Source: Oscillospiraceae bacterium
Lineage (GTDB): Bacteria > Bacillota > Clostridia > Oscillospirales > Ruminococcaceae
DNA: 52,634 bases
Reading direction: 5' to 3'
Assembly (NCBI GenBank): GCA_036311245.1
Contig: JAXJQH010000122.1
Span: 1-52,634, forward strand
Shown here: one piece after another, positions 3,368 to 41,830 of the stretch
Layout of the letters: the number at the start of each line of letters is the position of its first letter
How positions within the stretch are numbered: position 1 is the stretch's first letter
The notes under the pieces: generated by a model
Seen by the model: only the letters and a program-made list of their open reading frames with translations
Databases searched by the model: none
What the model was told of the DNA's origin: nothing
Position numbers and translations under genes: made by a program

Positions 3368-3823
3368 ATGAATTTACCTGTAAGAAAAAGAGTAAGGCTT
3401 AAAAATTATGATTACAGCCAAAATGGATACTATTTTATAACGATGTGCACAAAAGAAAAGCAAAAGCTATTGTGTAAAATTGTAGGGGACGATGCCCACA
3501 TCGTCCCGTCACCTTACGGCATAATAATAGAAAAATACATAAAAACCATTGTTGGTATAGAGAAGTATGTGATTATGCCGAATCATATACATCTGATAAT
3601 TAAAATCGATAGCGGGACGATGTGGGCATCGTCCCCTACAAAGTCAATTCCACAAATAATTAAATCACTTAAAACTTTAGTTACAAAAGAAGTAGGAAAA
3701 TCGATTTTTCAGCGCTCTTACCACGACCATATTATCCGCAATGAAAACGACTACCTCAAAATTTGGAACTACATCGACACAAATCCTCAGAAATGGTGCG
3801 AGGACTGCTTTTACGCAGAATAA
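3368..3823 (+). CDS. REP-associated tyrosine transposase-like protein (RAYT / IS200-like Y1 HUH family, COG1943)
   Basis: 151 aa with HUH motif MPNHIHLII. The C-terminal SYHDHIIRNENDYLKIWNYIDTNPQKW carries the conserved Tyr region. N-terminal YYFITMCT beta-strand. No flanking IS ends are visible. Confidence 0.8.
   Translation: MNLPVRKRVRLKNYDYSQNGYYFITMCTKEKQKLLCKIVGDDAHIVPSPYGIIIEKYIKTIVGIEKYVIMPNHIHLIIKIDSGTMWASSPTKSIPQIIKSLKTLVTKEVGKSIFQRSYHDHIIRNENDYLKIWNYIDTNPQKWCEDCFYAE
3481..3508 (+). repeat. REP-like module, left arm: GTAG plus 9-bp-stem hairpin, inside the RAYT CDS
   Basis: TGTAGGGGACGATGCCCACATCGTCCCG contains the hairpin GGGACGATG-CCCA-CATCGTCCC. It is the exact reverse complement of 3613..3640. 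Confidence 0.9.
3613..3640 (-). repeat. REP-like module, right arm (inverted copy), inside the RAYT CDS
   Basis: CGGGACGATGTGGGCATCGTCCCCTACA matches the reverse complement of 3481..3508 at 28/28 positions. Confidence 0.9.
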
Positions 3824-3885: not shown

Positions 3886-5628
3886 TTAGAAACGGTCTCT
3901 CTTTACATAGTGAGTGTGGAGAACCTCGTGAGCCTTGTGGCTGCCAGGAGCGCCGAAATACTCATCATAAAGCTGCTTGACAACGGGGTTGTCATGCGAC
4001 TTTCTGAGGGTGCTGTTCTTATCAATATTGTAAAGAACAGCGGCTCTCTTGGCACGGATATCGGTAAAGCTCTGGACATTTGAAGGCTGAATGGGCTGTC
4101 CGCCGCCGTTTACACAGCCGCCGGGGCAAGCCATAATCTCAACAAAGTGATACTCTGCTTCGCCTGCGCGGATTTTGTCAAGAAGCTCTCTTGCGCAAGA
4201 GAGGCTCGATGCAACCGCAACCTTAACCTCGATATTGCCGACCTTATAAGAAGCCTCTTTGATTCCCTTGGTTCCACGAACCTCGTGGAATTCAAGAACC
4301 TTAAGCTCTTCTCCTGTAATGGTTTCAACAGCAGTTCTGAGCGCTGCTTCCATAACACCGCCGGTAGCGCCAAAGATAACGCCTGCGCCGGTAGAGGTTC
4401 CGAGAGGAGCATCGAATTTCTCATCCTCAAGGTTTACAAAGTCAATACCTGCGCGCTCAATCATACGGGAGAGCTCACGGGTTGTGATAGCAACATCAAC
4501 ATCGGGAACGCCCGCAGCAGCCTCGCCATCGCGTCCGCACTCAAATTTCTTTGCAGTACAGGGCATTACGCTGACAACAAACAGGTCTTTGGGGTCGATA
4601 CCCTCTTTCTCAGCATACCAGGTCTTTGCAACTGCGCCAAACATCTGCTGAGGAGACTTGCAGCTGGAGAGGTTGTCAATGAAATCGGGATAATAGTGCT
4701 CACAGAATTTAACCCAACCGGGTGAGCAGGATGTGATGAGGGGAAGCTTGCCGCCATTCTTAAGACGGTCAATAAGCTCGTTAGCCTCCTCAATAATGGT
4801 GAGGTCGGCAGAGAAATCGGTGTCATAAACACCGTCAAAGCCGAGTCTTCTGAGAGCTGCAACCATCTTGCCCTCAACATCGGTGCCGATAGGCATACCG
4901 AATGCTTCACCGAGAGCCGCGCGGATTGCAGGAGCAGTCTGAACAATGACCTTCTTAGAGGGGTCATTGAGAGCCTCCCAAACCTTTGCAGTGTCGTCCT
5001 TCTCATAAAGAGCGCCGACAGGGCAGGCGGTGATGCACTGACCGCAGGAGATGCATGCTACGTCAGCAAGGTCCTGATCAAATGCACAGCCGATGTGGGA
5101 CTCAAAGCCGCGGTTGTTAGGTCCGATAACGCCAACGGTCTGAACCTTGGAGCAGGCTGCTACGCAGCGGCGGCAAAGGATACATTTGTTGTTATCGCGA
5201 ACCATATGGGGAGCGCTTTCGTCAAGCTCATAGTCATTAACATCGCCTGCAAAGTGGTCAACATCGTCAACACCGTAGTCACGGCAGAGCTTCTGCAGCT
5301 CGCAGTTTGTGCTGCGAACGCAGGAAAGGCACTTTTTATCGTGATTAGAGAGGATAAGCTCTAAGGTAAGCTTTCTCGACTCCATTACCTTGGGGGAGTT
5401 TGTAAAAATCTCCATACCCTCGGCTACAGGGAACATACAAGAAGTTACAAGACCTCTTGCTCCCTTTACCTCAACAAGGCAGATACGGCAAGCGCCGATT
5501 TCATTAACGTCTTTTAAATAGCACAGTGTCGGAATATAGATACCGACGCTCTGGGCGGCCTCAAGAATGGTTACGCCCTTAGGCACACTGTAAGGCATGC
5601 CGTTGATTTGAATATTTACTTTTTCCAT
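3886..5628 (-). CDS. hydA: [FeFe]-hydrogenase catalytic subunit HydA (bifurcating HydABC type)
   Basis: H-cluster signatures TSCSPGW, MPCTAKKFE and EIMACPGGCVNGGGQP. N-terminal 2Fe-2S and multiple 4Fe-4S Cys motifs. Start set at ATG 5628 (AGGAAAGGGG upstream); the track ORF begins at GTG 5637. Confidence 0.93.
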   Translation of the reverse strand: MEKVNIQINGMPYSVPKGVTILEAAQSVGIYIPTLCYLKDVNEIGACRICLVEVKGARGLVTSCMFPVAEGMEIFTNSPKVMESRKLTLELILSNHDKKCLSCVRSTNCELQKLCRDYGVDDVDHFAGDVNDYELDESAPHMVRDNNKCILCRRCVAACSKVQTVGVIGPNNRGFESHIGCAFDQDLADVACISCGQCITACPVGALYEKDDTAKVWEALNDPSKKVIVQTAPAIRAALGEAFGMPIGTDVEGKMVAALRRLGFDGVYDTDFSADLTIIEEANELIDRLKNGGKLPLITSCSPGWVKFCEHYYPDFIDNLSSCKSPQQMFGAVAKTWYAEKEGIDPKDLFVVSVMPCTAKKFECGRDGEAAAGVPDVDVAITTRELSRMIERAGIDFVNLEDEKFDAPLGTSTGAGVIFGATGGVMEAALRTAVETITGEELKVLEFHEVRGTKGIKEASYKVGNIEVKVAVASSLSCARELLDKIRAGEAEYHFVEIMACPGGCVNGGGQPIQPSNVQSFTDIRAKRAAVLYNIDKNSTLRKSHDNPVVKQLYDEYFGAPGSHKAHEVLHTHYVKRDRF

Positions 5629-30530: not shown

Positions 30531-31735
30531 ATGATTAGGATACCCTTTTCCCCGCCCGATATAGGAGAAAATGAAATAAACGAAGTTATTGATACTCTTC
30601 GCAGCGGCTGGATAACCACAGGTCCCAAAACAAAGCTTTTTGAAAAGCAAATAAGCGAGTATTGCGGCACCGACCGCACAGTCTGCTTAAATTCCGCCAC
30701 CGCCGCCTTAGAGCTTACCCTGCGTGTGCTCGGAATAGGCGCGAGGGTGACGAGGTTATCACCAGCGCATATACATACACCGCCTCTGCAAGCGTTATTG
30801 TCCACGTCGGCGCTAAGCCTGTGCTTATTGACACGCAGGAAAACAGCTTTGACATGTACTATCAAAAGCTCGCCGATGCAATAAACGAGAGAACAAAAGC
30901 CATTATTCCCGTTGACCTTGCGGGCGTAATGTGCGATTACGATAGTATTTTTGCAGCAGTAGAGGGCAAAAAGCACCTCTTTACTCCCAAGAGCGAGCTT
31001 CAAAAGGCTCTTGGCAGAGTTGCCGTTATTGCTGATGCGGCTCACGCCTTCGGCGCTACTCAAAACGGGAAAAAATGCGGTCAGGTAGCTGATTTTACCT
31101 GCTTTTCTTTCCACGCAGTCAAAAACCTCACCACAGCCGAGGGCGGCGCGGTTACCTTCTCGGCTCGAGATGGTTTTGACCTTGATGCTATCTATCATCA
31201 GTACCAACTCCTGTCTCTGCACGGGCAGAGCAAGGATGCGCTTGCAAAAAACCGTCTCGGCGCTTGGGAATACGATATTGTTGCCCCTTACTACAAATGC
31301 AATATGACCGATATTATGGCTGCCATCGGCTTGGCACAGCTAAAAAGATATGATTCTATGCTTTGCCGCCGCCACGAGATAATAGAGCGCTATGACTCTC
31401 TTTGCCGCGAAATAGGTGCACACTTTATTTGTCACAGCGGCGAAAATTTCCGCTCAAGCGGTCATTTATATCTTATGCGTTTGCCTTCCTTTACAGAAGA
31501 AATGCGCAACGCATTTATAACATCTATGGCACAGGAGGGCATCAGCACAAACGTGCACTACAAACCCCTTCCTATGCACACCGCATACAAAAATCTCGGT
31601 TTTAATATATCAGACTTTCCCAACGCATACAGCCTTTACAAAAACGAGGTTTCCCTCCCGCTGCACACAGGTCTTACCGACGAGCAGATAGATTATATTA
31701 TTTCAGGAGTTAAAAACTGCCTTAAAAAGGTGTAA
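30531..31735 (+). pseudogene. DegT/DnrJ/EryC1/StrS-family sugar aminotransferase, interrupted by a frameshift near 30741-30746
   Basis: Track ORFs 30510..30884 (MIRIPFSPPDIGENEINEV...LRVLGIGA) and 30662..31735 (GDEVITSAYTYTAS...FSFHAVKNLTTAEGG...) are the N- and C-terminal parts of one protein, in frames differing by one nucleotide. Confidence 0.8.
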
Positions 31736-31749
31736 AACGGAGCTGAAGA

Positions 31750-32997
31750 ATGAATAAGATTATCATTTTCACATCGCGTTTCCCCTTTCGCACGGTTTTC
31801 GAAAATTTCTTCCAAATCGAGCTTTTTAATATAGCCAAAGGCTTTGACAAGGTTTATATCGTAGCCTGCGATGTTCGAGACAACAACCCCGAGATTAAAA
31901 AGGAGCTCCCAGAAAACGCCGTTGCTATACATGCAAAGCGAAAAGGATTTATATCCGACTTTATTCTGGGAGCGCTTTCGCTTCCCTTTTGTCCGTTTTT
32001 CATAAGAGAAATAAAAACGATAGTGCGTCAAAAGCGTCCTTTTCTAAGTTCTCTTAAATCAACGGTCTATTCGGGTTGCTACTATTTAGCAATTCGTCGT
32101 TGTTTTGGGCAAATTGCGCGCGAAATCGATATTTCTCAGGATGATAATGTTGTTTTAATGGGATATTGGTTGCACTACATTTCTCAGGCAGCGCTTTTAT
32201 TTAAAAAATATCTCAAACTCAAAAATGCCCGTGTTTTTTCAAGGGCGCACGGTTCTGCTGACATTCGTAATTTCCTTATTCCAAATAAATACTATCCTCT
32301 TCAGGCCAATCTGCTTTCAAAGCTGGATGCAATTTTCCCCGTTTCCGAAATGGGGCGTGATTACCTGCGTGCTCTCTCAGGTCGCCCAGAAGCAATAGAG
32401 TCTGTTTACATAGGCTCTGTCGGACCAAGTGACCCTATCCCCCGCTGCCGTTCCCCCTTTACCATTGTTACCTGTTCTAATATTATCCCACTAAAAAGAG
32501 TGGGCCTTGTGGCTGATGCTGTTCGGCTACTTTGCAGAAGCATCCCTGACATTCGTTGGGTGCACTTTGGCGACGGCCCACTTAGGCAAGAGCTTGAAAG
32601 CTCCTGCGCTGACATACAGGCCCATATTGATTTTTGCGGCTATACCCCTCACGATAAGGTTTTAGAATATCTTGCTTCGGAAGAGCCCTCGGTGTTTGTC
32701 AGCGCAAGCGCAAGTGAGGGACTGCCGGTTTCGGTTGTTGAAGCTATCGCTCATTCTATTCCCGTTATTGCTACCGATGTGGGCGCAACAAGAGAAGCTG
32801 TAATCGCCGAAAAGAGCGGTACCCTTATCCCTGCAGATATAACCTCGGCGCAGCTCGCTCAGTACATATACGCATACTACAATATGCACTCTGACGAATA
32901 CGCACAAATTTCAAAATCTGCTTTTCTATTCTGGAAACAAAATTTTGCACCTGAGGTAAGCACAGAGAACTTTTTATCTCTGCTTAAACGTTTTTAA
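31750..32997 (+). CDS. GT4-family (GT-B) glycosyltransferase
   Basis: 415 aa with the C-terminal motif SASEGLPVSVVEAIAHSIPVIATDVGATREAV (EX7E type). Confidence 0.85.
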   Translation: MNKIIIFTSRFPFRTVFENFFQIELFNIAKGFDKVYIVACDVRDNNPEIKKELPENAVAIHAKRKGFISDFILGALSLPFCPFFIREIKTIVRQKRPFLSSLKSTVYSGCYYLAIRRCFGQIAREIDISQDDNVVLMGYWLHYISQAALLFKKYLKLKNARVFSRAHGSADIRNFLIPNKYYPLQANLLSKLDAIFPVSEMGRDYLRALSGRPEAIESVYIGSVGPSDPIPRCRSPFTIVTCSNIIPLKRVGLVADAVRLLCRSIPDIRWVHFGDGPLRQELESSCADIQAHIDFCGYTPHDKVLEYLASEEPSVFVSASASEGLPVSVVEAIAHSIPVIATDVGATREAVIAEKSGTLIPADITSAQLAQYIYAYYNMHSDEYAQISKSAFLFWKQNFAPEVSTENFLSLLKRF

Positions 32998-33011
32998 TTT
33001 GGAGGAACACT

Positions 33012-34220
33012 GTGAGAAAAACCGCCCTATGGATGACATATTTATATTTTTTTATATGTCCGCTTGAGTTTATTTTTAATAGATGGTTTGGGTCCAGCGT
33101 TAAATATATTGCGCTGGTTGCTGCCGCATTCATTCTGATGTTCTTTATCGTCTCTCCCAAACAGCCAATGAAGTTTGGTGCAATTCAGATATGTCTTGGC
33201 GCTTGGGCACTTTTTGAAGCCGCAAGCTATTTGTGGACCATTCACTCACGTCATACCCTTAGTATGCTTATCACATATCTTATGATGGCCGTTTTGGTTA
33301 TTGCCATCTCTCTGTTTCCATTTGAAAAAAAAGAGCTTGAGGGAGTCCTTCTTTCTTACACATTAGGCTGCCTCATTTTAACTATTCTTGTTCTGGTTTT
33401 TGGCAAAATGTGGAACGACAATGCTTCAGGGCGAATGTCAATTCAGATTCTTGGCTCTTATCAGGATCCAAACGGACTTGCAGCCAATCTTTTAGGCGGC
33501 ATATTCTATTCCTTACATAAAATCTTTGAAAAGCCAAAAAGGTTTCCAATTTTAAATATTCTTTTTGCAGTAATCTGGGCAGTATCATCAATTGCAGTGT
33601 TTTATACCGGCTCACGCGGTGCTTTAGTTGCTTATGCTGTAGCCCTCATAGCGTTTACATTAATGCGCTCTTCCAAAAAAAATCGACTGATAATTTTACT
33701 ATCTGCTTCTTTGGCTATATTAATAATTTATTTCATTCTTAAAGAACTTCTTCCTCCTGCTCTTTTTAACCGACTCTTTGATTTTTCCTCGTACTCAGGC
33801 GGTAGCGGACGCATTAATATTTGGTTAACGGCATTGAGAAAAATAGTAGAAAACCCGATTGTTGGCTTCGGTGTTCTGAGTCACCAAGGCTTTTTCTATC
33901 TGGAAAGAGGCGCTGAAGTCTCTATGCACAACACCTTCCTTTTTATTCTTTTTGAGGTGGGAATTGTCGGTCTTACACTTTTTATGATTCCGTTTATTAA
34001 ATCTTTGCGATGTGCCATTCGTCACAAAAACGCAATGCTCGTTGCTATTATAATTGCAAACATTGCGGTTGCCTTTTTCCTTGATGCGCTGAATTTGCGC
34101 TATCTGTGGAACGCTATGATGTTTGGAATAATTTTCTACAACTGCTGCTATGCGGAAAAAGTTTCTCCCTCAAAAACATTTCCTATAACTCCTCCTCTCC
34201 CCGCAAACAAAACGCAATAA
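33012..34220 (+). CDS. O-antigen ligase/polymerase-like membrane protein (Wzy_C family)
   Basis: 402 aa with at least 10 hydrophobic helices, a YTGSRGALVAY loop motif, and a GTG start. Confidence 0.75.
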   Translation: MRKTALWMTYLYFFICPLEFIFNRWFGSSVKYIALVAAAFILMFFIVSPKQPMKFGAIQICLGAWALFEAASYLWTIHSRHTLSMLITYLMMAVLVIAISLFPFEKKELEGVLLSYTLGCLILTILVLVFGKMWNDNASGRMSIQILGSYQDPNGLAANLLGGIFYSLHKIFEKPKRFPILNILFAVIWAVSSIAVFYTGSRGALVAYAVALIAFTLMRSSKKNRLIILLSASLAILIIYFILKELLPPALFNRLFDFSSYSGGSGRINIWLTALRKIVENPIVGFGVLSHQGFFYLERGAEVSMHNTFLFILFEVGIVGLTLFMIPFIKSLRCAIRHKNAMLVAIIIANIAVAFFLDALNLRYLWNAMMFGIIFYNCCYAEKVSPSKTFPITPPLPANKTQ

Positions 34221-34318
34221 CTGACTGAATAATTCTATTTTTTCATTGACAATGCGCACTTTGCGTGGCATAATTTTAAAGAACATATTCCCTTACCCCC
34301 CCCGAAAGGATGAGAACT

Positions 34319-35395
34319 ATGAAATATGCACTTATCGGTTGCGGTCGTATCGCTCCCAACCACCTGAGAGCCGCTAATGCAAACGGACTTGAGCTTGTTG
34401 CAATTTGCGATATTGACCCCTCACAGATGCAGGCGCTGTGCGAGAAGTTCTCTGTTCCCGACAGTGTTTTAAGATTTACAGACCATAAAGCTCTGCTTTC
34501 CGAAATAAAGCCTGACCTTATAGCTATTGCGACCGAAAGCGGCAGCCACGCAGAAATTGCAAAGGACTGTATCCGCGCAGGCTGCAACCTCATTATTGAG
34601 AAGCCAATTTCCCTTTCATTGCACGATGCTGCCGAGATAGTCTCACTTTCAGAAGAGTACAAGGTCAAGGTTTCTGCATGCCATCAAAACAGGTTTAACA
34701 TTGCCATTCAGAAAGCCCGCAACGCTCTTGAGGCGGGTCGGCTGGGAAATCTCTCGCACGGAGCAATCACCGTTCGCTGGAGCCGAGGCCAGGGTTACTA
34801 TGCGCAGGCAGATTGGCGCGGCACCTGGGCTTGCGACGGCGGGACACTAATGAACCAATGTATCCACGGCTTTGACCTCTTACGCTGGATGATGGGAGAT
34901 GAGATAAGTGAGGTCTACGGGGTTACCCGTCAGGCCTTCCACCCCTACATAGAGGCTGAAGACCTCGGTATGGCTGTTATAAAATTTAAAAACGGCGCTA
35001 TCGCCACTGCCGAGGGCACTACCAACATTTATGACAATTCCCTCGACACCGAAACCCTCTGCCTTTATGGCGACAAGGGAGCGATTGAAATAGGCGGCAC
35101 AGCCGCAAATCGAGTTACCGTCTGGTCATTTGCCGAGGAAGCCTACGACGACAGTGAGCACCGCAACCTTTCCGAACAGGCGGCAAACGTTTACGGAAAC
35201 GGACACACAAGCCTCTATGCTGATGTTATCGACGCGGTACAAAATGACCGCCCGCCATATGTCGATGCGAAGGCGGGAATGCGTGCACTCGAGCTTATTC
35301 TCGCAATATACAAAAGCATGAAAGAGGGGAAACCCGTTTCTCTCCCACTTGATGATTTTTCCACAATGGATATGGTCGGCACGTTTGATAAATAA
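34319..35395 (+). CDS. Gfo/Idh/MocA-family NAD(P)-dependent sugar oxidoreductase
   Basis: Begins MKYALIGCGRIAPNH (Rossmann) and contains an EKP motif (IIEKPISL). Start at ATG 34319 (GAAAGGA 8 nt upstream). Confidence 0.85.
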   Translation: MKYALIGCGRIAPNHLRAANANGLELVAICDIDPSQMQALCEKFSVPDSVLRFTDHKALLSEIKPDLIAIATESGSHAEIAKDCIRAGCNLIIEKPISLSLHDAAEIVSLSEEYKVKVSACHQNRFNIAIQKARNALEAGRLGNLSHGAITVRWSRGQGYYAQADWRGTWACDGGTLMNQCIHGFDLLRWMMGDEISEVYGVTRQAFHPYIEAEDLGMAVIKFKNGAIATAEGTTNIYDNSLDTETLCLYGDKGAIEIGGTAANRVTVWSFAEEAYDDSEHRNLSEQAANVYGNGHTSLYADVIDAVQNDRPPYVDAKAGMRALELILAIYKSMKEGKPVSLPLDDFSTMDMVGTFDK

Positions 35396-35400
35396 TGAAA

Positions 35401-35573
35401 GTGAACTATCCTTTGAATGCGAAATAATGACCTACGGTCATTGTGAAATATTGCTCCTTCGTCGCAATGTGAAATGAAATTTGCCCACATTCGCGCCAGC
35501 GAATATTTCACATTTACGAAGTAAATATTTCACAGCGAAGCTATTTCACTTGCCCGTTAGGGCAAATTTCGTT
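35401..35573. repeat. motif/mini-hairpin array A (TGTGAAATA forward, TATTTCACA reverse)
   Basis: Forward copies at 35418, 35442 and 35468. Reverse copies at 35504, 35526, 35542 and 35565. Each interval is a short palindrome: ATGACC-TAC-GGTCAT, TTCGC-GCCA-GCGAA, TTTAC-GAA-GTAAA, GC-GAA-GC, TGCCC-GTTA-GGGCA. Confidence 0.85.
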
Positions 35574-35574
35574 G

Positions 35575-35620
35575 AAAAGAAACAACCTTTGTCTTGGTAG
35601 ACAAAGGTTGTTTCTTTTCT
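35575..35620. terminator. strong hairpin plus T-run closing array A
   Basis: AAAAGAAACAACCTTTGTC-TTGGTA-GACAAAGGTTGTTTCTTTT. Confidence 0.75.
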
Positions 35621-35667
35621 GAAAGGGTATGAATTTTTGACCTATGTGTTCGAGCACCTACAAATTT

Positions 35668-35838
35668 AGTGATATTGTGCCTTTGGCACAGTGATATTTT
35701 TGCGTTGCAAAAGTGATATTGAAACCTATGGTTTCAGTGATATTATATTCGCCATAAAACTGGGCAAAGCCCAATATCACTCGGCGCAAGCCGAATATCA
35801 CTGCGTAGCAATATAACTCGCCGAAGGCGAATATAACT
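35668..35838. repeat. motif/mini-hairpin array B (4x AGTGATATT, then 4x AATATCACT/AATATAACT)
   Basis: Forward copies at 35668, 35690, 35712 and 35736. Reverse copies at 35773, 35794, 35810 and 35830. Intervals are GTGCC-TTT-GGCAC, TTTGC-GTT-GCAAA, GAAACC-TAT-GGTTTC, GGGC-AAA-GCCC, CGGC-GCAA-GCCG, GC-GTA-GC, CGCC-GAA-GGCG. Confidence 0.9.
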
Positions 35839-35839
35839 G

Positions 35840-35871
35840 AAAAAGACGATTGCTTTCGCAATCGTCTTTTT
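35840..35871. terminator. bidirectional terminator between array B and tRNA-Arg
   Basis: AAAAAGACGATTGC-TTTC-GCAATCGTCTTTTT, 2 nt from the tRNA 3' end. Confidence 0.85.
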
Positions 35872-35873
35872 CT

Positions 35874-35950
35874 TGGCGCGCTGTGAGGGACTCGAACCCC
35901 CGACCTTTTGGTTCGTAGCCAAACACTCTATCCAGCTGAGCTAACAGCGC
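35874..35950 (-). tRNA. tRNA-Arg (anticodon ACG)
   Basis: Minus strand folds as a cloverleaf: GCGCTGTTAGCTCAGCTGGATAGAGTGTTTGGCTACGAACCAAAAGGTCGGGGGTTCGAGTCCCTCACAGCGCGCCA. Anticodon loop CTACGAA. CCA is encoded. Confidence 0.95.
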
Positions 35951-39703: not shown

Positions 39704-39811
39704 GTTATTAGTGATATTATATTTTCCCTTAACTGCCCGAAATGCAATGTAACTCGGCGTTAGCCAAATATCACTGCGAAGCAATATAACTCACCAAAGG
39801 CGAATATAACT
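39688..39811. repeat. motif/mini-hairpin array C (shorter homologue of array B)
   Basis: TGTGATAGC at 39688 and AGTGATATT at 39710. Then AATGTAACT at 39746, AATATCACT at 39767, AATATAACT at 39783 and 39803 (spacing 21/16/20, as in B). Intervals are CGGC-GTTA-GCCA, GC-GAA-GC, CACC-AAA-GGCG. Confidence 0.85.
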
Positions 39812-39812
39812 G

Positions 39813-39848
39813 AAAAAAACTCCTTGAGAAAATCTCAAGGAGTTTTTC
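39813..39848. terminator. bidirectional terminator hairpin closing array C, downstream of the PH-domain gene
   Basis: A7-CTCCTTGAG-AAAAT-CTCAAGGAG-T5. Confidence 0.8.
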
Positions 39849-39849
39849 T

Positions 39850-41587: not shown

Positions 41588-41630
41588 TGCGAAGCATTGT
41601 ATTTATAATTCGTGGCGAAGCCACACCACA

Positions 41631-41724
41631 CTTATTACCTTTTACTTATTACTTATTACTTCCCAAAAATCCCGTGAAAGACTTTATTTGAAGTAAGAGT
41701 GAAGAGGTAAGAAGTAATAAGTAA
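41631..41724. repeat. low-complexity imperfect palindrome E (CTTATTAC-type)
   Basis: The left arm CTTATTACCTTTTACTTATTACTTATTACTTCCC pairs imperfectly with the right arm GAAGTAAGAGTGAAGAGGTAAGAAGTAATAAGTAAAA. It is preceded by mini-hairpins AATGC-GAA-GCATT (41586) and GTGGC-GAA-GCCAC (41612). Confidence 0.8.
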
Positions 41725-41754
41725 AATCCCGCTCACTTACGTGAGCGGGATTTT
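41723..41754. terminator. bidirectional terminator abutting the tRNA-Thr 3' end
   Basis: AAAATCCCGCTCAC-TTAC-GTGAGCGGGATTTT. Confidence 0.85.
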
Positions 41755-41830
41755 TGGAGCTGCTAACCAGAATCGAACTGGTGACCTCATCCTTACCAAG
41801 GATGTGCTCTACCGACTGAGCCATAGCAGC
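41755..41830 (-). tRNA. tRNA-Thr (anticodon GGU)
   Basis: Minus strand folds as a cloverleaf: GCTGCTATGGCTCAGTCGGTAGAGCACATCCTTGGTAAGGATGAGGTCACCAGTTCGATTCTGGTTAGCAGCTCCA. Anticodon loop TTGGTAA. CCA is encoded. Confidence 0.95.

Follow-up and report, generated by a model that had tools for sequence, protein, structure and literature searches.

The structured motif Gut-1 (Rfam family RF01706) has been listed as certainly RNA and not cis-regulatory, with 43 sequences known from the human gut only (Weinberg et al. 2010, PMC2864571). Its published description is a single sentence that gives no function (PMC2864571), and literature searches by name and accession found no paper on Gut-1 or RF01706 later than that one. 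Here, we analysed a stretch of 52,634 nucleotides from an Oscillospiraceae bacterium (contig JAXJQH010000122.1, hereafter the window). An earlier note on this DNA, made from the letters alone, had pointed out two tandem arrays, A and B, of phased 9-mers separated by mini-hairpins next to a tRNA-Arg gene, as well as a distant array C, and had matched them to no known element. Arrays A and B are two complete copies, and C is one shortened copy, of a multi-copy, terminator-linked module of gut Clostridia, and the terminator-proximal half of this module is Gut-1. Family membership, architecture, copy behaviour and hairpin statistics were observed directly. As to what they mean, we favour, with a probability of about one half, the reading that the module is an interspersed structured repeat of the kind formed by repetitive extragenic palindromes (REPs) and bacterial interspersed mosaic elements (BIMEs). 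It would fold as single-stranded nucleic acid, most likely DNA, spread and recombine as a module, and provide bidirectional terminators.

The REP/BIME/REPIN-RAYT systems of Enterobacteria and Pseudomonas resemble the arrays in several ways. They too consist of short extragenic palindromic units present in tens to hundreds of copies, they form clusters of alternating orientation behind genes and next to terminators, they carry a conserved single-stranded motif at the hairpin foot, and they are thought to act as single-stranded DNA (ssDNA). Many interspersed extragenic copies per genome were likewise found here, with counts that are lower bounds. The REP palindrome, however, is conserved and has a 5' GTAG, whereas here the palindromes are free and a 7-mer linker (GTGAAAT or GTGATAT) is fixed; moreover, Gut-1 modules carry their own terminator, unlike REPs. 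The BOX elements of Streptococcus pneumoniae (boxA-boxB(n)-boxC) are modular, non-coding, strongly folding repeats with variable internal units and many intergenic copies. The arrays would share these traits with such modular Gram-positive repeats; there appears to be no sequence relation, however, and BOX modules are conserved in sequence.

Two further systems invite comparison at the level of the hairpins. Mini-hairpin DNA, that is, GCGNAGC and GCGNNAGC, is extraordinarily stable as DNA and much weaker as RNA, with a melting temperature of 39 °C for r(GCGAAAGC); it binds the single-stranded DNA-binding protein SSB poorly and occurs at single-strand initiation sites such as the phage G4 origin, RSF1010 ssiA and the phage N4 promoters (PMC13037366). 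The array hairpins share with d(GCGNAGC) and d(GCGNNAGC) the C-G closing pair, the GNA or GNNA loop and stems down to 2-3 bp. Those described are single hairpins at the replication or transcription starts of small replicons, whereas here rows of them are repeated around the chromosome. The sponge RNAs CsrB and RsmZ also have a short single-stranded motif repeated between or on hairpins. They differ in that the arrays show no GGA motif, number tens of copies, lie behind a terminator and yielded no promoter in the modules examined.

Gut-1 units within a larger module

The Rfam 15 covariance-model scan, in which the gathering score of Gut-1 is 50 bits, placed the terminator-proximal units of modules A and B above that score. 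Three further Gut-1 matches (Table 1) came from a permissive threshold, all below 50 bits. The Gut-1 consensus of four (G)UGAAAU linkers and three hairpins corresponds to the phased 9-mers and mini-hairpins of the earlier note, as the model alignments bear out. The arrays are thus of a kind already known, and the statement that they match no known element does not stand. As a single instance they are ordinary, since any Rfam scan would label them Gut-1. The agreement covers the linkers, the covarying hairpins, the gut metagenome relatives and the order of tRNA-Arg, terminator and unit in the seed. Indeed, the seed alignment holds a tRNA-Arg gene, a predicted terminator, a B-type unit and, in its flank, the inverted half, but only the unit was modelled, so that, of the module, the Rfam model takes in the terminator-proximal half alone. 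The published description does not extend to the inverted second unit, the long-range helix P1, the attached bidirectional terminator, the tRNA linkage, the presence in many copies, the shuffling or the DNA-like statistics of the hairpins.

A motif search of the window reproduced all the array positions and spacings given in the note, and each array continues from its last motif directly into a terminator-like hairpin, as had been said. The three-motif pattern matched three times in the window and not once in 100 shuffles. A motif-agnostic scan, for any 7-mer present at least three times with palindromic gaps, returned these arrays alone in 52.6 kb, and 20 shuffles gave no match. The + strand of array B reached a folding energy of -66.8 kcal/mol (z -7.9 versus shuffled sequence), 7 kcal/mol better than its - strand (z -5.9); the + strand of array A also gave a z of -5.9. 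Two details of the note had to be corrected. The constant single-stranded unit is a 7-mer (GTGAAAT, GTGATAT or GTTATAT), the outer bases of the proposed 9-mer being the closing pair of the adjoining hairpins, and array C is a shortened copy.

Relatives were collected in three scans. The first used a loose pattern on viral contigs, the second three GTGAAAT motifs in one genome per species, and the third three AGTGATATT motifs in metagenomes. The last two each returned at least 120 rows; copy numbers drawn from this sample are lower bounds, and the sample is not random. The viral-contig scan was mostly noise, with three true arrays (L017, L038 and L066) among the loci checked. Arrays recurred at other loci, as the note had proposed to look for, and the fixed module was seen across at least about 200 related loci. 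Among the matches listed, true arrays came mostly from metagenome-assembled genomes (MAGs) of gut Clostridia, namely Oscillospiraceae, Ruminococcaceae, Acutalibacteraceae, Christensenellaceae and unclassified Eubacteriales, and the hosts were humans, ruminants, deer and horse. A few arrays were on Akkermansia-binned contigs and one on a Bacteroidaceae-binned contig (L123). Parsing yielded at least 116 distinct A-type units in 73 loci and at least 89 units, mostly B-type, in 62 loci.

Units lying within 120 nt of each other followed a strict arrangement: among the matches listed, 30 pairs were convergent, none divergent and one tandem, with a usual spacer of 26-30 nt. A terminator-like hairpin with a T-run, hereafter T0, stood just upstream of exactly one unit in 24 of the 30 pairs. 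In 21 of these 24, the terminator-side unit was the one with the short hairpins (mean length 11-14 nt), as opposed to the one with the long hairpins (15-18 nt); the exceptions are L186, L214 and L215. The position of the terminator on the short-hairpin side, together with the convergence of the units, gives the module order T0, S, inverted A'. The module thus comprises T0; a unit S of four GTGAAAT or GTGATAT 7-mers with short G+C-rich hairpins; a centre; and an inverted unit A', which has these 7-mers on the opposite strand and longer hairpins.

The module centre pairs back to the start of S via P1, one specific long-range helix of 10-12 bp. It joins the first motif and the 5' arm of hairpin 1 to the stretch that immediately precedes the first ATTTCAC in the second half, and it competes with hairpin 1. 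Of 31 modules, 26 showed a complementarity of 10/12 or more in P1. The helix covaries, falling into at least six sequence classes (AAATCC, TTTGCC, TTCGCC, TCCACC, TTCGTTCC and a B-type class with the TATAT motif), each with its own partner; in module B, the TATAT/ATATA variant covaries with the GAAAT/ATTTC of A-type modules. The note had gone further and suggested that the forward and reverse blocks pair into a long stem decorated with small branch hairpins. Energy minimisation does draw such a stem. A variant motif in one half, though, lacks its compensating change in the other: in module B, GTTATAT stands opposite ATATCAC, and mismatches were also seen in L231 and L122. We do not claim a rod that pairs all forward with all reverse 7-mers, and only helix P1 is supported.

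Single-unit relatives (L126, L127, L157, L175, L204, L209, L286, L324 and others) end in a conserved tail rich in purines: GTGAAGGAAG, GTTAAGGAAG or the partly palindromic GTTGTGGAATATTC. After the tail comes a hairpin, and often a second bidirectional terminator as well, so that terminators enclose the array at either end. Paired modules have a centre (GTGAGTGG, GTTAAGGG) that seems to be homologous to the tail.

Copies, terminators and hairpin statistics

The orthologous radC-tRNA-Arg...GFO locus (GFO standing here for a gene of the GFO/IDH/MocA oxidoreductase family) was found without arrays in two relatives, L243 and L242, whose RadC proteins are 74% and 85% identical to that of the window. 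This locus keeps radC, the promoter and an identical tRNA-Arg gene; a different, plain terminator follows the tRNA gene, and GFO has a terminator of its own. The absence of arrays there indicates that modules A and B are a lineage-specific gain, each bringing its terminator. The window RadC had one other exact copy only, on a 1-kb contig.

Copies within single genomes had sharp limits. Loci L152 and L183 each hold two module copies that stand in unrelated flanks and are about 99% identical over exactly the span that opens with the A-run of T0 and closes with the final ATTTCAC. One metagenome assembly (ERZ808278, 11-14x coverage) had at least 12 arrays on five contigs (492 kb), the window has three modules in 52.6 kb, and several other loci have two to four copies. 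The 21 arrays of ERZ808278 and its relatives reuse about nine hairpin families in varied orders, such as A-B-C, C-B-F, E-B-I and F-E-A, which indicates that cassettes are exchanged at the constant linker. Terminators move as well: in the close relative L311, an intact module occupies the orthologous position of array C, the T0 terminators of two modules are swapped between the window and L311, and array C of the window is missing most of its second half.

T0 has both an A-run and a T-run and is thus bidirectional, and both runs are retained in nearly all modules. Among the matches listed, 22 terminal tRNA genes (13 isotypes) have T0 behind them, for the most part starting 0-1 nt past the encoded CCA, and 25 of the 45 tRNA genes in array loci have a unit following. 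T0 families (GCACTTGC..GCAAGTGC; ..TTTGTC..GACAAA..) recur behind different tRNA isotypes and in different genomes, and the second of them, that of module A, was found again in L216, L210, L199, L160, L177 and L195. Within the window, module B lies directly behind the tRNA-Arg gene and module A stands in tandem after module B; downstream of GFO, the T0 of module A is the sole terminator. Judging by position, the modules would supply the terminators of tRNA-Arg and of GFO.

The hairpins were then considered as a set of 263 A-type and 189 B-type distinct hairpins, 452 together. Stem positions were Watson-Crick in 95.7% (A-type) and 95.9% (B-type) versus 29% after shuffling. The palindromes themselves are variable, with 174 distinct arms among the 263 hairpins. 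The proposal that stems change in sequence yet stay paired was thereby upheld on hairpins from related loci, at 96% overall. Such pairing, kept despite changing sequence, argues that a single-stranded secondary structure, of RNA or of ssDNA, is under selection. Mismatches bear on which of the two it is. G·T and A·C numbered 15 versus 19 in A-type hairpins, 12 versus 13 in B-type hairpins and 27 versus 32 combined. Control tRNA stems of the same loci, taken at fixed positions (acceptor and T stems), gave 32 G·T versus 6 A·C in 516 pairs. Set against this control, the balanced ratio indicates that the arrays are without the G·U excess expected of one-strand RNA structure.

There were 285 triloops versus 167 tetraloops. 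A C-G pair closed 383 hairpins, a G-C pair 11. Loops ran T..C in 274 cases and G..A in 8 when read on the GTGAAAT strand, and loop polarity was coupled to linker polarity in both units. On the complementary (ATTTCAC) strand, loops read C-GAA-G, C-GCA-G, C-GTA-G, C-GCAA-G and C-GTAA-G, that is, C-GNA-G or C-GNNA-G. The shortest hairpins are literal mini-hairpins on the + strand of the window, GCGAAGC at 35535-35541 (module A) and 39776-39782 (module C), and GCGTAGC at 35803-35809 (module B). The inverted arrangement of the units gives each DNA strand exactly one row of GNA hairpins with ATTTCAC. One transcript cannot hold both halves in the same sense, whereas two DNA strands can. Hairpin closure keeps the linkers adjacent, so that variation in unit length would be harmless if the hairpins are extruded.

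The two copies in L183 (~4262-4295 and ~4977-5010) have T0s that are identical except for an inverted loop, TTAC versus GTAA. This is probably the footprint of strand switching within the palindrome. Among the array hairpins such loop flips are very rare, as the 274 to 8 count of T..C and G..A loops indicates.

The favoured reading and its rivals

Under the REP/BIME-like reading, the module would behave as a REP/BIME-type element present in tens of copies per genome and not as a single-copy RNA gene. It would be copied with sharp borders, and recombination at the constant 7-mer would reshuffle hairpin cassettes and terminators. It would settle right after a terminator and, in very many cases, after the final tRNA gene of an operon. 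The hairpins would be selected to fold in single-stranded nucleic acid, for which ATTTCAC-strand DNA seems a better fit than one-strand RNA, and the single-stranded hairpin row might be the substrate of a putative protein, specific for hairpin and 7-mer, that copies or binds it.

A bolder proposal, which we put forward tentatively and hold to be doubtful, is that the Gut-1 "RNA" is perhaps not primarily RNA. It would represent a new REP-like class read as ssDNA, with C-GNA-G cassettes on a constant 7-mer, one row per strand, which a putative enzyme would copy, shuffle and place behind terminators and tRNA genes, and it would have sister families with CATCAT, CGAGATT and ATGATAT linkers. It is this reinterpretation of the family that could matter, no function or context having been given for Gut-1 since 2010. 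The fixed module, the linkage to the ends of tRNA operons, the sharp copies, the swapping, the lack of G·U excess and the GNA triloops together suggest an ssDNA repeat system widespread in gut Clostridia and apparently also present in Akkermansia. If this is true, there would be a partner protein to be found, and some "RNA motifs" defined by covariation would be DNA structures. On the practical side, the modules break metagenome assemblies and offer portable bidirectional terminators.

Several observations weigh against the favoured reading. GNRA-type loops are good RNA loops as well. In contrast to REP elements, constancy is confined to the linker, and the palindromes vary. No enzyme tied to the arrays was found among the neighbouring genes examined; a RAYT-like gene does lie in the window, but no arrays flank it, and it had no homologue in the 2.5 Mb of fetched loci. 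At the copy borders in L152 and L183 there are neither terminal inverted repeats nor target duplications, and a miniature inverted-repeat transposable element, which needs both, was rejected as a candidate. Two points concern transcription. Since module A would provide the GFO terminator, array A must, from its position, be transcribed as part of the 3' untranslated region of GFO. That T0 retains A-run and T-run alike points to transcripts crossing the module from the A' side, so that a role at the RNA level is possible.

A classical structured non-coding RNA, in which single-stranded GUGAAAU linkers (four, or four plus four) would form a multivalent platform for an RNA-binding protein, as a CsrB/RsmZ-like sponge or scaffold, seems to us possible but unlikely. 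Rfam and Weinberg et al. graded the motif "certainly RNA" on covariation (PMC2864571). Hairpin covariation is indeed strong and folding far better than shuffled, in single-unit relatives a purine-rich tail (GTGAAGGAAG or GTTGTGGAATATTC) precedes a terminator, as in a small RNA gene, and the coupling of loop polarity to linker polarity implies a strand-specific reader. However, the unit in Rfam orientation lies immediately downstream of a strong terminator, and across the modules examined no internal promoter was found at a conserved position. An internal sigma-70 promoter, as a small RNA gene would have, was therefore rejected: extended -10-like matches (e.g. TGaAATAAT) are scattered and none is conserved in position. 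The + strand of array B has one good promoter match, TTGAAA-16-TGaTATTAT, at 35719-35746. With a terminator directly upstream, the sequence context argues against routine transcription of the GUGAAAU strand. Tens of copies per genome and cassette shuffling are also unlike sponge RNAs, stems of 2 bp with triloops are marginal as RNA, neither strand shows the G·U excess seen in tRNA stems of the same loci, and a single transcript could carry only one of the inverted halves in sense orientation.

We regard as distinctly unlikely that the module is a cis-acting RNA 3'-end domain. Transcripts entering from the A' side (e.g. the GFO mRNA) would then fold into a compact, nuclease-resistant structure before T0, stabilising the mRNA and/or reinforcing termination, and the module would spread as a portable terminator. 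Such a role would suit the GFO gene, where array A is the sole sequence between the stop codon (35395) and the terminator, and it would suit a T0 that is bidirectional in nearly all modules. It also agrees with the second half, which on either strand presents a hairpin and then AUUUCAC, weakly terminator-like, and with the 7 kcal/mol by which array B folds better on its + strand. Yet in roughly one module out of two the neighbouring gene on the A' side faces outward (15 pointing in and 14 pointing out among the matches listed), so that no mRNA would enter, and plain terminators suffice in relatives. This reading would also leave unexplained why the 7-mer is constant, why the loops of both halves are polarised and why G·U is lacking.

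That the arrays are duplex DNA sites, with phased 7- to 9-mers bound by a protein as in iterons, centromere-like sites, integrase arms or ParB/Noc-like half-sites, is very improbable, although eight oriented copies of one short lineage-specific motif, shielded from transcription by bidirectional terminators, would suit such a role. The note had proposed binding sites phased at two helical turns per unit, but units range from 16 to 26 nt, which excludes helical phasing. Iterons and phased duplex sites were rejected on this count, with gaps of 9-19 nt and window spacings of 22/22/24 and 21/16/20. Palindromic spacers of unrelated sequence that are 96% Watson-Crick, polarised loops and a covarying P1 cannot be accounted for by duplex sites, and no integrase or partition gene stands beside the arrays; integrase arm sites were rejected too. 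The 9-mers TGTGAAATA and TATTTCACA (35442-35450, 35504-35512 and others) would fall between the half-sites of parS (TGTTTCAC/GTGAAACA) and Noc (TATTTCCC/GGGAAATA), which may be coincidence. Lastly, that the palindromes cluster by chance or stem from a decaying local duplication, as the adjacency of arrays A and B might suggest, can practically be dismissed, given recurrence of the same architecture in at least about 200 loci of many gut MAGs, no shuffled matches and the Rfam family match.

Other element classes were considered and rejected. CRISPR arrays usually come with cas genes and have direct repeats of ~23-50 nt, with spacers that are unique and non-palindromic; here the repeats are 7-9 nt, the "spacers" are palindromes of 9-19 nt, and no cas gene was found among the neighbouring genes. 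A type III toxin-antitoxin locus (ToxI-like) has near-identical repeats in tandem, then a terminator and a toxin gene; here the units differ in sequence, and a tRNA gene and polysaccharide genes are the neighbours. The core pair of integron attC sites is 5'-RYYYAAC ... GTTRRRY-3', used as a folded bottom strand, whereas the arrays have the reverse motif order (GTGAAAT ... ATTTCAC on both strands) and many motifs per element.

Neighbouring features and related arrays

Table 1. Features of the window (and, in the last row, of related loci) with their positions
Feature	Position	Strand	Details
Array A, forward motifs	35418; 35442; 35468	+	TGCGAAATA; TGTGAAATA; TGTGAAATG
Array A, reverse motifs	35504 and 35526; 35542		TATTTCACA (first two); TATTTCACT
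Array A, degenerate fourth reverse copy	35565		ATTTCGTTG
Module A, distal unit A'	35399-35480	+	Gut-1, 37.3 bits; GTGAACT, GCGAAAT, GTGAAAT, GTGAAAT with longer hairpins; begins 4 nt past the GFO/IDH/MocA stop codon
Module A, central arm of P1	35476-35486	+	GAAATTTGCCC; pairs with 35560-35570, 11/12 complementarity
Module A, terminator-proximal unit S	35500-35574	-	RF01706, 68.5 bits, E 1e-12; four (G)UGAAAU linkers, three hairpins
Module A, T0	35580-35620 (approximate)	both	14-bp stem, A-run on one side and T-run on the other; reads as a terminator on both strands
Array B, forward motif	35668, 35690, 35712, 35736	+	AGTGATATT; spacing 22/22/24
Array B, complement motif	35773, 35794, 35810, 35830		AATATCACT or AATATAACT; spacing 21/16/20
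Module B, distal unit A'	35667-35748	+	Gut-1, 48.1 bits; four exact AGTGATATT copies, three hairpins
Module B, central arm of P1	35744-35753	+	TATATTCGCC; pairs with GGCGAATATA at 35826-35835, 11/12
Module B, terminator-proximal unit S	35769-35839	-	RF01706, 54.9 bits; GTTATAT, GTTATAT, GTGATAT, GTGATAT
Module B, T0	35839-35872	both	Bidirectional (terminator scan); starts 1 nt past the tRNA-Arg CCA, junction gcgcgcca then AGAAAAAGACG
tRNA-Arg(ACG)	35874-35950	-	ARAGORN and Rfam tRNA; promoter-like site 36010-35982; module B directly behind
Array C	39710-39811		AGTGATATT at 39710; reverse copies at 39767, 39783, 39803
Module C, distal remnant	39710-39727	+	One AGTGATATT and a degraded P1 arm; rest of A' deleted (alignment with L311)
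Module C, unit S	39742-39812	-	Gut-1, 46.4 bits; paralogue of the module B S unit (alignment)
Module C, T0	39813-39849	both	Bidirectional; near-same terminator (one extra loop T) on a different module in L311
RAYT-like open reading frame	3368-3823	+	151 aa; NF047646 65 bits versus a cut-off of 80, E 6e-18; Pfam Y1_Tnp 23 bits
Arrays with other linkers	L127 ~3585-3700; L124 ~2390-2470; L122 4907-4962; L304 2986-3049; L309 2686-2984	- (L127, L122); + (L124)	Same design as Gut-1 arrays

Hairpin arrays of the same design were met with other constant linkers, namely CATCAT, CGAGATT and ATGATAT. The CATCAT array adjoins a Gut-1 unit in L127, and the CGAGATT array is on an Akkermansia-binned contig. 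They suggest a wider class of arrays with lineage-specific linkers.

The RAYT-like open reading frame of the window, whose best match is the family of REP-associated tyrosine transposases, has an HUH motif (HIH) and a conserved Tyr. In frame inside it lies a perfect 29-nt inverted repeat (3480-3508 / 3613-3641), each arm of which is GTAG plus a palindrome (GTAGGGGACGATGCCCACATCGTCCC), making a REPIN-like pair within the gene. A small open reading frame with a helix-turn-helix, XRE-like by sequence, stands just upstream, and ruvABC is next door. As the mobilising enzyme of the modules this gene was rejected: it is not adjacent to the arrays, it has GTAG palindromes of its own, and homologues are lacking in the fetched loci; we keep it as a lead only. 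REP-like sequences of the type found inside it, GTAGGGG plus a G+C-rich palindrome, occur beside or between Gut-1 units in L122 (~4860-4890) and L135 (~3790-3815).

On the side of GFO, the arrays adjoin a polysaccharide biosynthesis cluster (30662-35395) that encodes a DegT aminotransferase, a GT1 glycosyltransferase, a Wzy-like polymerase and the GFO/IDH/MocA oxidoreductase. In relatives, an SNF-family transporter gene or its remnant takes the place of modules A and B.

The second tRNA gene of the window, that of tRNA-Thr (41755-41830, - strand), also has a terminator behind it (41723-41754), followed by a different structured element; the region as a whole spans 41630-41757. In this element, TTACTTATTAC-type units form an imperfect inverted repeat of 40 nt (41630-41669 / 41683-41722), and a distant 12-nt copy of the terminator arm (41663-41674) pairs with 41746-41757, in a logic like that of the Gut-1 helix P1.

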